Shown here: positions 42,001-51,000 of the stretch, in pieces
Numbering within the stretch: the stretch's first letter is position 1
How the letters are laid out: every line of letters begins with the position of its first letter
IMG/VR virus record: IMGVR_UViG_641522650_000003
Source: a virus
Taxonomy: Duplodnaviria > Heunggongvirae > Uroviricota > Caudoviricetes
DNA length: 51,299 nucleotides
Direction: 5' to 3' (one strand)
Program-made: the position numbers

Positions 42001-45000
42001 GCGATATATTCAAAGGCCTTTTCGGTATCAAGGTCACTTTCAATCGTCGCTGCATACATCGCCTTTATGAAAAGACAGGAAAAAATAAAATTTAAAAACA
42101 GTACATTACGAATGCTCAGACCTATCGTTTAAAGGAGTCGCAATACACACTGCAATACACGATTATTTATAAGATGAGCGGCATCCGTCATAAAGCTGGT
42201 GGATGCTTTTTCTATGCATATATGCACAGTTTTAGTGGGCGTTAATGTCGATATAGGGATCCCCATATCGAGATTGGATACCAGGCTTTTTTAATCAGGC
42301 TGGTGGGCTTTACCTGTTTTGTATGAGTGGTCATCATGACCATGTCATAACAAAAACCCCATATTCGTGGTTTTTCTGTGTCGGGCTATTCTGTCGTTGC
42401 TGTGCTGATTTGGCTGGTGGGCTGAATCATCATTACGGCGATGCAGCTATGTAGACGTTCCGGCCTCCTCAAATTGAGGATTGTGGAAGAATCAATGGGT
42501 TAGTCTTACTTTCCCGACATCCCCCAATGGGGGGTTTCGAAACAATCAATAGCTTAGGCTTACTTCCCCGATTTCCTGCATTGCAGGTTTTCGAAATAAT
42601 CAATGGGTTAGGCCATCGTGCAATTTTGCACTTTGCCAGCCAGCGCAATGTCGCGTTATCAGTCCTCAGATGTGAGGGATGTAGCCAGCTTTTCCCCCAG
42701 TGGGGGATATCCAGCACCGACGGCTTAACTGTGCGTGCCAGCACAAGGTAGCCTTGAACTACTTACTGCATCCCATCTTACAGGCCGTGCCTTCCTGCTT
42801 AACTTTTTGCAATGCAACAAGTCAGCCAGCGCAATTTTGCGTTATCGGGAATATCAGCAAGTTACCGCCGCAATCGTTCCGGCTTCTTCCACTGGTAAGT
42901 ATTTTTCGCGCTCTCCCTCCGTTGTTGAGAACGGCGACGATATGCCAGCAACTCAAGGACTCTTGTTCGTATGTTGCGCATATCCACGCCGTTAAGCTCA
43001 ATACCGTCACGGCGCATCACCTCAGCCACTACACGCACATAATTATCTGCGGTCACGCTGTCCGGCTGCGTGGCCTGTTCGTCATGCTGCTTGCTGATTC
43101 CACAAGCACGGCGGATTAATCGCAGTATTTCGGATTCAGTCATAGCGTACTACGTTACTTATCTTTATTCGGCTGCAACTTATCCGGTACGTTTCCGGCA
43201 GTTTCCATCAGATAATCGGACAGCTGAGGTGTACTGGCAATAGCGGACACTACCATTTGTTCTTTTTTAAGCAGCCATCTGATGATATTTTTCCCTGAAG
43301 GCTGCCGGGGAGATATTCCCCAGACGAGAGTGACGACGCTGACGATTGTAGAAAATCTCAATGTATTCCCGTATTACTGAGATGGCTTCATCCCGGTTAT
43401 TAAAACGATAGTGGCTCAGGCTCTCATTTTTCAGCGTTCCCCAGAAGCTTTCCATCGGAGCGTTGTCGTAACAGTGACCTTTACGCGACATTGATGTTTT
43501 CAGACCAGACTGCTCCTGTATGACCCGGTAATCGTATGCGCAGTACTGTGAACCTCGATCAGAGTGGTGGATTAGCCCGGCAGGTGGGCGCTGGCTCCTG
43601 AGCGCCATAAACAGGGCTTTACCTGTCAGCTCTTTTGTCATGCGCTCTCCCATGGCGTAGCCGACAATTTCGCACGTATAAACATCTTTGATGCCAGCGA
43701 GGTACAACCATCCCTCCTGTGTGGCAACATACGTCAGGTCCGCCACCCAGACCTGATTTGGTGCTGTAGGAGCGAACGTCTGGTTCAGCAGATTTGGCGC
43801 AACTGGCAGATTGTGGTTCGGGTTCGTAGTCGCTCTGAACTTGCGTTTCTGCTTACAGCGTAGCCTTAGCTCCTTACGAAGACGTGCCAGTCGGTCACGA
43901 CCAACGATGATGCCATTCTCTGCCAGCTCCGTCTGGAGCCGCCGGGTTCCATATGTTTCGCGAGTGCGGATATGTGCCACCTTAATCTCCAGTTTTAGCC
44001 GCTCATCACTTTGTTTTCTGTCTGAGGGTTCATGCTGTACCCAGTTGTAATAACCGCTCCTGGATACACCAAATACCTGACACATCGCTTCAATGGGAAA
44101 TTGTTGTCGCCATTGTTCGATTAACGCGTATTTTTCAGCGACTCCTGTGCAAAATACGCTGTTGCTTTTTTTAATATATCTCGCTCAAGGCGAGCTTCAT
44201 TTAACGCCTTACGCAGTTGCAGAATTTCAGATTCCAGTTCAGCCACCGTGCGGGAACCAGGAGTACCGAGCCCTTTTCTGGCGGCGGTAACCCATTGTCC
44301 TAAAGTGCCTTCAGGAAGGGATAATCGGGAAGCGCCTTCACTGATCGAAAGTTGATTTTCAAGAACCGTTCTGACAGCTTCGGCTTTGAACTCTTTAGAG
44401 TAACGTTGGTTTTTTCTGCTCATTATTAGCTCCTTCTGATGCCATTCTATTTCAGGAAGGAGTGTCCGTTAAACTCAGGCTACCTCAGAAAGTTGATCTG
44501 ACCTCTCAGTAAATATCAATACGGTTCTGGCGAGCCGCTTACGTGCAGCAGTCTTATCCGGCAGTTTAAAGGGGAGGACGGAGACCAATGAGGCACTGGA
44601 GCAGATTCAGTGCAGAGGTGACCTGCTTTATCAAACTTAATTGTGACAAAATGGCGATTGAGAAGGTGCAATTGACTTATCCGGATTCGGTCGTGGCGAG
44701 GTGGTGCCCCTGCATTCTGCTAACCGGGTTATGAGCCAGGAGTCAGCGATAGACAAAGGGACTTATCTGACCGGGCCCCCGGAAAAATGGCGGGAGAGAA
44801 TGATACCTTCCTGCTGACGAGACCGGACTTTGAGATGACGAGCGATAGTGCGGCAGTGATGTACAGCCTGATCGGTAGCTGCAAAACTTAACGGAATCGA
44901 GCCGGAAACGTGGCTACGCCACGTGATCAGTGTAATCAACACCTGGCCTGCCAACCGCATGAAAGAGTTGTTGCCCTGGAACGTCACTCTCTCTGTAAAC

Positions 45001-48000: not shown

Positions 48001-51000
48001 CAGATTAAAGAACTCCAGCGCCTGCTCGGCAAGAAAACGATGGAAAATGAACTCCTCAAAGAAGCCGTTGAATATGGACGGGCAAAAAAGTGGATAGCGC
48101 ACGCGCCCTTATTGCCCGGGGATGGGGAGTAAGCTTAGTCAGCCGTTGTCTCCGGGTGTCGCGTGCGCAGTTGCACGTCATTCTCAGACGAACCGATGAC
48201 TGGATGGATGGCCGCCGCAGTCGTCACACTGATGATACGGATGTGCTTCTCCGTATACACCATGTTATCGGAGAGCTGCCCACGTATGGTTATCGTCGGG
48301 TATGGGCGCTGCTTCGCAGACAGGCAGAACTTGATGGTATGCCTGCGATCAATGCCAAACGTGTTTACCGGATCATGCGCCAGAATGCGCTGTTGCTTGA
48401 GCGAAAACCTGCTGTACCGCCATCGAAACGGGCACATACAGGCAGAGTGGCCGTGAAAGAAAGCAATCAGCGATGGTGCTCTGACGGGTTCGAGTTCTGC
48501 TGTGATAACGGAGAGAGACTGCGTGTCACGTTCGCGCTGGACTGCTGTGATCGTGAGGCACTGCACTGGGCGGTGACTACCGGCGGCTTCAACAGTGAAA
48601 CAGTACAGGACGTCATGCTGGGAGCGGTGGAACGCCGCTTCGGCAACGATCTTCCGTCGTCTCCAGTGGAGTGGCTGACGGATAATGGTTCATGCTACCG
48701 GGCTAATGAAACACGCCAGTTCGCCCGGATGTTGGGACTTGAACCGAAGAACACGGCGGTGCGGAGTCCGGAGAGTAACGGAATAGCAGAGAGCTTCGTG
48801 AAAACGATAAAGCGTGACTACATCAGTATCATGCCCAAACCAGACGGGTTAACGGCAGCAAAGAACCTTGCAGAGGCGTTCGAGCATTATAACGAATGGC
48901 ATCCGCATAGTGCGCTGGGTTATCGCTCGCCACGGGAATATCTGCGGCAGCGGGCTTGTAATGGGTTAAGTGATAACAGATGTCTGGAAATATAGGGGCA
49001 AATCCAATCACCTTACTCAGTCGACCTTCAAAATAAACGTTTAATAGGGACAATCACCATTTGGATTGTCCGCTGAGGAGGCGAACGTTTTCCTAGACAG
49101 CTTTATCATGTCAGCCCACATTGTTGGCGCTGACAATACTAAGGACAAACGATGGGGAAGTAGCTTTTTAGCGTTATTTTCGGGAGTAAAAAACATGGTA
49201 TCTTTCCGTATGTCAGTTGTATCTTGCTGGTATTCGTAGTCGTGATAAGGCATACAACGATATTTATCTTCACGTTAGTGAAGAATAAGTTGTTTTGTGA
49301 TCTATGTTAATCTGGGATTACAATCCGGGCTTGATACATCGCATCACGACTTTTATTCTCTTCAGAATAGAATATGTTACTCCCCGTTTTACAGGCTCAG
49401 GATTTGAATTACAAATTATACTTTTAAGTGAACAATAACCAGGGGTATTTCTTATTTCCTGAAACCAGGCTTGGCCCATTTCGGGATGAGTTTGAAAAAA
49501 CTCTTGACGCATACGATAGTGATGAAATAAACGAAACAAATTACGTCAACAAACTCAGGCGTCTTGCCTGACATGCTCCTGACATCATTGATATTCACGC
49601 TCATCTGGCATATGCATTTGCGCTCTTTATGCTGCAATTCTGGCGAATGTTCATTTACAGCGTCATCAGGATGCTGAGGTGTACTGGCAATAGCGGACAC
49701 TACCATTTGTTCTTTTTTTAAGCAGCCATCTGATGATATTTTTCCCTGAAGGCTGCCGGGGAGATATTCCCCAGACGAGAGTGACGACGCTGACGATTGT
49801 AGAAAATCTCAATGTATTCCCGTATTACTGAGATGGCTTCATCCTGGTTATTAAAACGATAGTGGCTCAGGCTCTCATTTTTCAGCGTTCCCCAGAAGCT
49901 TTCCATCGGAGCGTTGTCGTAACAGTGACCTTTACGCGACATTGATGTTTTCAGACCAGACTGCTCCTGTATGACCCGGTAATCGTATGCGCAGTACTGT
50001 GAACCTCGATCAGAGTGGTGGATTAGCCCGGCAGGTGGGCGCTGGCTCCTGAGCGCCATAAACAGGGCTTTACCTGTCAGCTCTTTTGTCATGCGCTCTC
50101 CCATGGCGTAGCCGACAATTTCGCACGTATAAACATCTTTGATGCCAGCGAGGTACAACCATCCCTCCTGTGTGGCAACATACGTCAGGTCCGCCACCCA
50201 GACCTGATTTGGTGCTGTAGGAGCGAACGTCTGGTTCAGCAGATTTGGCGCAACTGGCAGATTGTGGTTCGGGTTCGTAGTCGCTCTGAACTTGCGTTTC
50301 TGCTTACAGCGTAGCCTTAGCTCCTTACGAAGACGTGCCAGTCGGTCACGACCAACGATGATGCCATTCTCTGCCAGCTCCGTCTGGAGCCGCCGGGTTC
50401 CATATGTTTCGCGAGTGCGGATATGTGCCACCTTAATCTCCAGTTTTAGCCGCTCATCACTTTGTTTTCTGTCTGAGGGTTCATGCTGTACCCAGTTGTA
50501 ATAACCGCTCCTGGATACACCAAATACCTGACACATCGCTTCAATGGGAAATTGTTGTCGCCATTGTTCGATTAACGCGTATTTTTCAGCGACTCCTGTG
50601 CAAAATACGCTGTTGCTTTTTTTAATATATCTCGCTCAAGGCGAGCTTCATTTAACGCCTTACGCAGTTGCAGAATTTCAGATTCCAGTTCAGCCACCGT
50701 GCGGGAACCAGGAGTACCGAGCCCTTTTCTGGCGGCGGTAACCCATTGTCCTAAAGTGCCTTCAGGAAGGGATAATCGGGAAGCGCCTTCACTGATCGAA
50801 AGTTGATTTTCAGGAACCGTTCTGACAGCTTCGGCTTTGAACTCTTTAGAGTAACGTTGGTTTTTTCTGCTCATTATTAGCTCCTTCTGATGCCATTCTA
50901 TTTCAGGAAGGAGTGTCCGTTAAACTCAGGCTACCTCAATCAGCGCCAGTCAGTCAGCCGGAGCAAAAACAGAAGCCCCACTCATTCCGGAACAACCTTC

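Follow-up and report, generated by a model that had tools for sequence, protein, structure and literature searches.

The window analysed here is the whole 51,299-nt stretch of a Caudoviricetes virus record (IMGVR_UViG_641522650_000003), and it matches Shigella boydii CDC 3083-94 (CP001063.1) with 100% identity over 10.3 kb. Self-BLAST and reading of the junctions showed that at 43225-50938 (7.7 kb) two IS600 copies, B and C, stand as direct repeats around a segment carrying iha, in the order IS600, IS66 remnant, iha, IS2, AT-rich DNA and IS600 (Table 1). The segment between the two copies is 5,187 bp long. Every feature that the initial annotation had listed here was found, and at the same coordinates.

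Table 1. Features of the iha segment and its outer flanks in the window.
Feature	Position	Strand	Basis
Left outer flank: 3' end of PICI-type small-terminase gene terS' (last ~70 bp) and 93-aa gene, abutting truncated lambdoid portal gene	42060..43224	-	98.7% identical to E. coli EC28
IS600 copy B, 1263 bp, orfA (100 aa) and orfB (272 aa) intact, without target duplication	43225..44487	-	Self-BLAST, junction reading
IS66-family transposase remnants and spacer, 733 bp, downstream of iha, ancestral island DNA	44488..45220		Aligned to E. coli G6/7 pseudogenes
iha, intact, 696-aa TonB-dependent catecholate-siderophore receptor/adhesin	45221..47311	-	NF010012 and WP_001223350.1 matches
Retained iha upstream region, 364 bp	47312..47675	-	Sigma-70-like -35/-10 pair and Fur-box-like sequences
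IS2, 1331 bp, simple insertion with 5-bp ATCAC duplication	47676..49006	+	PRK09413, PRK09409, junction reading
Low-GC island DNA, 668 bp, upstream of iha in E. coli islands	49007..49674		99.7% identical to E. coli G6/7
IS600 copy C, 1264 bp, intact, without target duplication	49675..50938	-	Self-BLAST, junction reading
Right outer flank: 3' part of lambdoid-prophage DUF1378 gene, then DUF826	50939..51299	+	99.7% identical to O104:H4 prophages

The two 1.26-kb repeats are separated by 2 mismatches and 1 indel, and their 99.8% identity is far beyond chance. Their ends read TGAGGT…ACCTCA, NF033516 was matched, and matching elements are annotated in RefSeq as IS600 family. The length of ~1264 bp, the terminal TG…CA inverted repeats, orfA/orfB and a 3-bp duplication on simple insertion are those of IS600 in the IS3 family; such duplications were read as CTC at copy A (11923-14522 in the window), TTC at an island copy and ATC at a solo insertion in other assemblies (Type I, below). 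As had been claimed from the sequence, copies B and C share one orientation and neither has a target duplication, the 3-bp flanks being AGC/GAA at copy B and TGC/ATC at copy C.

A protein search, which had been proposed for confirming the Iha identity of the receptor, scored 1616.9 bits against the NCBIfam equivalog NF010012 (cutoff 924) over residues 1-696 of 696. The product is identical to the E. coli RefSeq Iha WP_001223350.1 at 695/696 positions, with the sole change A23T in the signal peptide, and the Pfam plug (PF07715) and beta-barrel (PF00593) domains were both found. The proximal promoter region with its Fur-box-like sequence is kept, as initially described, though the Fur-like match is weak: a sigma-70-like -35/-10 pair lies at 47436-47407, and candidate Fur-box-like sites lie at 47363-47381 (13/19) and 47397-47418 (12/19), while 23 sites in the window reach at least 13/19. 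A strict Fur-box search, allowing at most 3 mismatches to the consensus, found no site, the best matches being 12-13/19. No difference among four iha alleles was seen in the Fur-like stretch. Four Shigella-specific changes lie upstream of iha, among them a C→T directly 5' of the -10-like hexamer AATAAT that would create an extended -10 of the form TGnTAATAA. Since iha is intact and its own proximal promoter is retained together with a conserved Fur-like site, its product is most likely still an iron-repressed catecholate receptor/adhesin, a function taken from the E. coli literature.

IS2 had been placed about 365 bp upstream of the iha start with a clean ATCAC duplication; the distance is 364 bp and the duplicated copies are at 47671-47675 and 49007-49011. 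Its ORFs matched PRK09413 (275.8 bits) and PRK09409 (727.6 bits), and InsA/InsB-type ORFs, the 1331-bp length and a 5-bp target duplication are as expected of this IS3-family element. The end of IS2 that faces iha is the one from which its genes read away. The initial annotation had suggested a distal promoter remodelled by IS2; the insertion does interrupt a segment upstream of iha that is conserved in three island types, but we know of no distal iha promoter. An IS2 adjoining iha in E. coli HY220605 was considered as the same insertion and rejected, as its site differs.

With IS2 and one ATCAC copy taken out, 44647-49674 forms a single alignment block of 99.8% identity to E. coli G6/7, and the first 167 bp (44488-44654) align to the same G6/7 locus, beyond an intact IS66 element carried by G6/7. 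The IS66-family remnant reported between the copies corresponds to pseudogenes of G6/7 which PGAP names 'IS66 family transposase' and 'transposase domain-containing protein', and the reported ~670 bp of low-GC DNA has 40% GC against a window mean of 51.6%. An Rfam scan of the whole window, this low-GC stretch included, matched no RNA family. In E. coli, iha is found in pathogenicity islands, namely PAI-CFT073-pheV, PAI-ED1a-pheU (Iha and aerobactin) and LPA (EspI and Iha) (PMC7545054, PMC6920203). The DNA between the IS600 copies resembles such islands in that the SPATE–IS66 remnants–iha–iutA/iuc region of G6/7 matches it at 99.8% identity; unlike them, the window segment lies outside an island, is down to 5.2 kb, contains IS2 and is bounded by IS600.

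The same module was found at three other loci (L003, L004 and L007) with 99.96-99.97% identity over 7,680 bp, including the IS2 site, and its context there is an island with tRNA-Phe and an integrase. In these Shigella loci the tRNA-Phe adjoins dsbD/yjdC, and a SPATE gene or shiF-iucA is close by. A tRNA-Phe-linked iuc/iut-type location (SHI-3-like, with P4-type integrase and aerobactin) holds for L003 and L004 and does not hold for the window, where the segment sits between PICI and prophage remnants. The island copy B' carries a TTC duplication in L003 and L004 (..ATCAACTTTC-IS600-TTCCAGGGCAAC..), and at its target E. coli G6/7 is uninterrupted (ATCAACTTTCCAGGGCAAC). In the island-state assemblies another IS3-family element has removed the outer 35 bp of copy C', so these genomes are not direct donors; L007, L003 and L004 also show more IS-associated rearrangements at the module. 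By this comparison, the tRNA-Phe/integrase island is the origin of the module. A hybrid 303-aa IS66-remnant ORF adjoins the island copy B', for which a protein search matched only full-length IS66 cluster representatives and gave no exact sequence.

The outer flanks of the window module derive from two different phage-type elements and are divergently oriented. On the left, the full island in E. coli EC28 is annotated as int…primase, capsid, AlpA, Nu1-type TerS and 93 aa. A look-up of the 93-aa PICI gene gave 6,301 blocks with E. coli PICI contexts only; this protein is very widespread, so the look-up is uninformative for Shigella. On the right, the outer junction is at exactly the same site as a simple insertion present in at least five assemblies (Type I, n = 5), in which a solo IS600 with an ATC duplication lies in the prophage DUF1378 gene (gagaaaATC-IS600-ATCagcgcc). 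Three complete genomes (Type II; CP049281.1, CP026762.1 and CP026814.1) have no iha at this site and read cggacAGC-IS600-ATCagcgcc, that is, exactly the two outer flanks of the window joined by one IS600. The Type II loci (L027, L028 and L030) are collinear with the window flanks at 99.6-99.98% identity over 6.8 and 8.4 kb and are 6,451 bp shorter, which corresponds to one IS600 and the iha segment. Set against the occupied allele, the empty one lacks precisely one repeat and the insert, as for a segment bounded by direct repeats, and the same IS600-bounded unit stands at a second locus, the tRNA-Phe island of L003, L004 and L007. The window arrangement also occurs in four independent draft assemblies (L005, L008-L010). 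A 300-nt query from both flanks found no joining of the outer flanks without IS600 in 5,426 E. coli genomes, the matches ending 7 bp past the joint. The right outer flank shares a 7-bp identity, ATCAGCG, with the DNA after the left junction in intact terS, which we count against the explanation preferred below.

We consider it probable that the segment is an IS600-bounded island piece whose occupied and empty forms are separated by a single reciprocal event of homologous recombination between two IS600 copies, and that it is not a composite transposon. Both IS600 copies would first have inserted into the island, as shown for copy B by its TTC duplication and its uninterrupted target in E. coli, and an IS2 also entered the DNA 364 bp upstream of iha. 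One IS600 and the 5,187-bp segment, together a unit of 6,451 bp, now occupy a site that holds a single IS600 in other strains and lies between the PICI terS remnant and the prophage DUF1378 gene. Either an excised circle would have integrated into the resident IS600, or a deletion between copies B and C would have produced the shorter form, and the IS600 polymorphisms fit both. Dependence on RecA and circular intermediates would be expected, and a solo IS600 would be predicted as the donor-site remnant at the tRNA-Phe island in CDC 3083-94.

Since other strains have the same site with one IS600 and no iha, the segment appears to enter or leave by ordinary recombination between the repeats. The initial annotation had suggested that the islet can be lost or moved through its flanking IS600 copies and had recommended a comparison with iha-containing islands in other strains. 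This comparison located the module in the tRNA-Phe island and empty sites with one IS600 in the three complete genomes, and to this extent the suggestion stands. Within IS600, allele 171T is on copy C both in the island and in the window; position 171 fits integration and deletion alike, and lineage-private variants occur at 39 and 1139. Two differences from L004 close to the outer ends were considered as traces of the crossover and dropped, because L005 shares the window context yet carries the L004 alleles.

In a true composite transposon, transposase acting on the outermost ends would have moved IS600-iha-IS600 from the island into the prophage region. Both window copies are indeed full length with intact inverted repeats and orfA/orfB and bracket a passenger, and the B-side end of the module is the exact IS600 terminus in both contexts. 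However, the unit as a whole lacks a 3-bp duplication (AGC vs ATC) and the empty allele keeps one IS600 instead of none, which argues that it is not a composite transposon. The flanks moreover come from two elements on divergent strands, never contiguous without IS600 in the 5,426 E. coli genomes. The right outer junction matches exactly that of a simple IS600 insertion which was already there and has an ATC duplication of its own, and IS3-family elements transpose via single-element circles. This reading is largely refuted and we regard it as very improbable; the composite-transposon-like structure proposed at first does not hold in the mechanistic sense, since no duplication surrounds the unit and what is polymorphic is one IS600 plus insert, not IS-insert-IS. 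IS26 forms translocatable units, which consist of one IS and adjacent DNA and integrate beside an existing IS copy. The iha unit resembles these in being one IS with a passenger, in an empty site that holds one IS and in the lack of a new target duplication; it differs in that IS600 belongs to the IS3 family and that plain homologous recombination explains the data. We know of no conservative targeted reaction of IS600. It is improbable that, by this analogy, one IS600 plus iha would be a true translocatable unit, with an island circle delivered to the resident IS600 by a targeted, possibly transposase-assisted, conservative reaction, IS26-like within the IS3 family; the ATCAGCG identity would then reflect non-standard joining and not chance.

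Inversions or translocations could also have exchanged the flanks in two independent events without a circle, B' recombining with a terS copy of IS600 and C' with the DUF1378 copy, which would have brought the island segment into place; Type II would have arisen later by deletion between B and C. The divergent flanks are as expected at inversion breakpoints, IS-mediated inversions are reported to be abundant in Shigella genomes (PMC8072062), and the other IS-associated rearrangements at the module in L007, L003 and L004 point the same way. The number of events is greater here than for integration into a hybrid IS600 already in place, and no terS insertion of IS600 with a duplication of its own was found; this course otherwise makes the same predictions for the present data as homologous recombination with a resident IS600, and we hold it to be unlikely. 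If an inversion between IS600 copies did occur, the reciprocal joint would be gagaaaATC-IS600-AGCATCAGCGGTATG (5' part of DUF1378, IS600, 5' part of terS), and the 7-bp identity would be a coincidence. Mis-assembly typically arises at repeats such as these of 1.3 kb, so an artefact, or independent arrivals of IS600 at identical positions in different backgrounds, was also weighed. It is hardly conceivable given that the same arrangement is present in a finished genome and in the four drafts, that L012 spans 47702-44509, and that the module is 99.97% identical across contexts, IS2 site included. In addition, iha lies on contigs of 2-5 kb in 111 of the 122 index blocks, as would be seen when IS2 and IS600 interrupt short-read assembly.

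An experimental precedent exists on the Shigella virulence plasmid, where an IS600 pair mediates deletion (PMC5629016); the T3SS island is lost from pINV via pairs of ISSfl4, IS1294 or IS600 (Pilla et al. 2017, PMC5629016). In both systems near-identical direct IS copies surround a virulence segment and one repeat plus the insert is removed, whereas the iha event is chromosomal, is deduced from natural alleles and not from culture, and concerns a unit also present at a second locus. The setting of iha is likewise similar to that of a virulence gene flanked by IS600 in a defective lambdoid prophage, with recombination-driven copy-number change or loss; the gene is different, however, no amplification was seen for iha, and iha is island-derived and not phage cargo.

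The event is of a known kind and a good new example of it, IS-mediated recombination being a well-known route of Shigella genome change; as the mechanism is textbook, the finding refines our understanding and does not change it. The loci provide a natural allele series for one virulence-associated gene, from the island form with target duplications through the simple IS600 insertion and the single hybrid IS600 to the occupied site. Its successive stages show how, in Shigella, a piece of a pathogenicity island becomes a portable and losable cassette through IS600 copies. Short-read assemblies will break at the borders of the iha segment, and in these lineages the presence of iha is neither stable nor tied to a locus.

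By exact-protein look-up and alignment, the window was 100% identical over 10.3 kb to CP001063.1 (Shigella boydii CDC 3083-94), and its remainder comprised an IS1-riddled yeh/metG chromosomal region and lambdoid prophage late genes. The initial annotation had placed an Iha-like gene between two directly oriented IS600 copies, here called B and C, and self-comparison of the window together with junction reading matched this anatomy base for base. Copies B and C are two substitutions and one single-base indel apart, each with intact orfA (100 aa) and orfB (272 aa), and neither had a 3-bp target duplication when the junctions were read (flanks AGC/GAA for B and TGC/ATC for C). 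From B to C follow a 733-bp IS66 remnant, to which IS66-family pseudogenes annotated by PGAP in E. coli align, the 696-aa ORF (minus strand) with 364 bp of DNA upstream of it, IS2 and 668 bp with a GC content of 40%. The IS2 (1331 bp) has ATCAC at either side, confirming the clean duplication noted earlier about 365 bp upstream of the gene. Since 44647-49674, after removal of IS2 and one ATCAC, forms a single uninterrupted 99.8% block with E. coli strain G6/7, this IS2 is a simple and clean insertion. Directly after copy B, 167 bp (44488-44654) match the same G6/7 locus on the far side of its intact IS66 element.

Left of copy B lies the end of a PICI-like island, which retains a 93-aa gene and the final ~70 bp of terS (Nu1-type) and adjoins a portal gene that is truncated; in E. 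coli EC28 this island is complete and annotated. Right of copy C, the 3' part of the prophage DUF1378 gene is followed by DUF826. The two outer flanks have opposite reading directions and different source elements, and they were joined in none of 5,426 complete E. coli genomes. Loci related to the PICI-like remnant were found in other assemblies (L013 9001-19198, L016-L025), and the island content includes int, primase, SSB, its own capsid and decoration genes, AlpA, Nu1-type TerS and the 93-aa gene, whose protein is indexed in 6,301 blocks. Fusion of the island with a lambdoid prophage at the truncated portal gene is widespread in E. coli, while in L021 the island adjoins dmsC/serS instead.

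Features located in the window
Feature	Position	Strand	Remark
Top Fur-consensus match	4065-4083		15/19, palindromic, GATTATGAGCATCATCATC; away from iha
IS1	5078-5847		
IS600 copy A	11923-14522		CTC duplication
Second IS2	12326-13656		duplication CCTGT; splits copy A
Nested IS pile-up	11923-15294		yeh/metG region
IS1	14527-15294		
IS1	19037-19810		
IS1	22825-23592		
PICI-like remnant	42060-43224		
IS600 copy B	43225-44487	minus	self-comparison and junction reading
Fur-like site near iha	47363-47381		13/19
Sigma-70-like -35/-10 pair	47436-47407		upstream of iha
IS600 copy C	49675-50938	minus	self-comparison and junction reading

The gene-called DUF826 ORF of CP001063.1 was used as a tag for IS600 at the exact DUF1378 position, because its called start falls within the terminus of copy C; look-up of this ORF and reading of the junctions revealed three locus states. 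Type I, a solo IS600 (L026, L029, L031, L032 and L035), reads gagaaaATC/IS600/ATCagcgcc and is a simple insertion that has a target duplication of its own and lies in a prophage with normal gene order. Type II (CP049281.1, CP026762.1 and CP026814.1) reads cggacAGC/single 1264-bp IS600/ATCagcgcc, and its junctions are exactly both outer flanks of the window. Type III, the occupied form, was present in the window, CP001063.1 and AMJS01000046.1, with junctions as in the window. The flanks of Type II and the window are collinear and, over 6.8 kb and 8.4 kb, share 99.6-99.98% identity, so Types II and III differ by exactly 6,451 bp, i.e. the iha segment (5,187 bp) and one IS600 copy.

The exact same Iha protein was also found in three NCBI assemblies (L003, L004 and L007), within an island beside dsbD-yjdC, tRNA-Phe and an integrase, with a SPATE autotransporter gene or shiF-iucA near. 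The whole module, with IS2 at the same site, aligned to the window along 7,680 bp at 99.96-99.97% identity. In the island, the counterpart of copy B (B') has the junctions ..ATCAACTTTC/IS600/TTCCAGGGCAAC.., and the uninterrupted target in G6/7 reads ATCAACTTTCCAGGGCAAC; B' is a simple IS600 insertion into island DNA with a TTC duplication. This indicates that the ancestral location of the module is the island, and that the outer flank of copy B was exchanged in the window. The outer 35 bp of C', the counterpart of copy C, are replaced by the end of another IS3-family element, labelled only 'IS3 family' in RefSeq, which we take to be IS911-like. Because these 35 bp are lost, the three genomes are cousins of the donor and not the donor. 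Outside the module (iha-plus orientation, 13200-22091) the island loci differ from each other: L003 continues into the SPATE gene and L004 into shiF-iucA, and in L007, B' is cut at the equivalent of window 44078, with IS fragments of other kinds linking it to otsA/otsB-araHGF. The region continues to be rearranged by several IS families.

Comparison of these sequences points with good confidence to reciprocal homologous recombination between direct IS600 repeats, since the empty form has one repeat and the occupied form two with no new target duplication, and the same unit lies between the same repeats at another locus. Recombination between B' and C' in the island would release a circle with one IS600 and the iha segment, which would integrate into a resident hybrid IS600; alternatively, deletion between copies B and C would generate the Type II allele. 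The only informative IS600 polymorphism, position 171 (T on copy C in both island and window, C on copy B and in Types I and II), is compatible with integration and with deletion. The Type II and III alleles and the second locus agree with the earlier proposal that the islet can be moved or lost through its flanking copies. The composite-transposon reading of the same structure did not hold: composite transposition is effectively excluded, since the unit carries no flanking duplication, an empty site without IS600 did not occur in the 5,426 E. coli genomes, and the right junction comes from a pre-existing simple IS600 insertion.

The 7-mer ATCAGCG immediately right of copy C also follows the left junction in intact terS (cggacagc/ATCAGCGgtatg in EC28) and is native to DUF1378 (gagaaa/ATCAGCGccagt), as compared in the window (43217-43224 and 50939-50945), L013 (10190-10205) and L014 (4996-5010). 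With a chance of about 6e-5, this identity may have arisen by coincidence, may reflect target similarity, or may be a remnant of how the hybrid IS600 site formed.

IS600 adjoins the stx operon. Spontaneous amplification and deletion of this operon were reportedly described by McDonough and Butterton in 1999, in a paper whose title is given in PMC7819885. Our literature search returned no paper on iha between IS600 copies in Shigella; the type of event is already well established. As a precedent for the recombination proposed here, deletion of the T3SS island of pINV mediated by an IS600 pair was demonstrated experimentally (PMC5629016).

The 696-aa ORF is Iha as annotated, and not a different core-genome receptor: it gave a full-length match to NCBIfam equivalog NF010012 (1616.9 bits, cutoff 924) and was identical at 695/696 residues to the RefSeq 'bifunctional siderophore receptor/adhesin Iha', the sole change being A23T in the signal peptide. 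Its proximal promoter region and Fur-box-like sequence, described as retained, were recovered in the 364 bp as the -35/-10 pair and a 13/19 site about 52-70 bp before the ATG. This best Fur-like site near iha is a weak consensus match, as 23 sites of at least 13/19 occur across the window; a window search gave no Fur-box within 3 mismatches of consensus. The stretch is unchanged across four iha alleles, one of them only 95% identical overall. Iron/Fur regulation of iha is said to have been described by Rashid et al. and Léveillé et al. in 2006. In the 3,029-bp iha block, all five differences from G6/7 fall in the last 431 bp (47245-47675) and none in 44647-47244; they are A23T and four upstream changes (C→T, +A, C→A, -T), three of the four occurring in none of the three E. 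coli alleles used for comparison. The C→T lies directly next to the -10-like AATAAT hexamer, on its 5' side. Such differences near the iha start might alter expression.

IS2 interrupts a segment that accompanies iha in three different island types, and in a divergent yak-strain allele homology runs about 150 bp past the insertion point. The left end of IS2 faces iha and its genes read away from it. We know of no distal iha promoter, so the suggested remodelling of one by IS2 stays conjecture.

Elsewhere in the window, copy A, unlike copies B and C, has a target duplication and sits 4 bp from an IS1. The four near-identical IS1 copies, one inverted, fragment a core-chromosome stretch of about 18 kb (yeh fimbrial genes, metG and the apbC region), which is typical Shigella genome decay.
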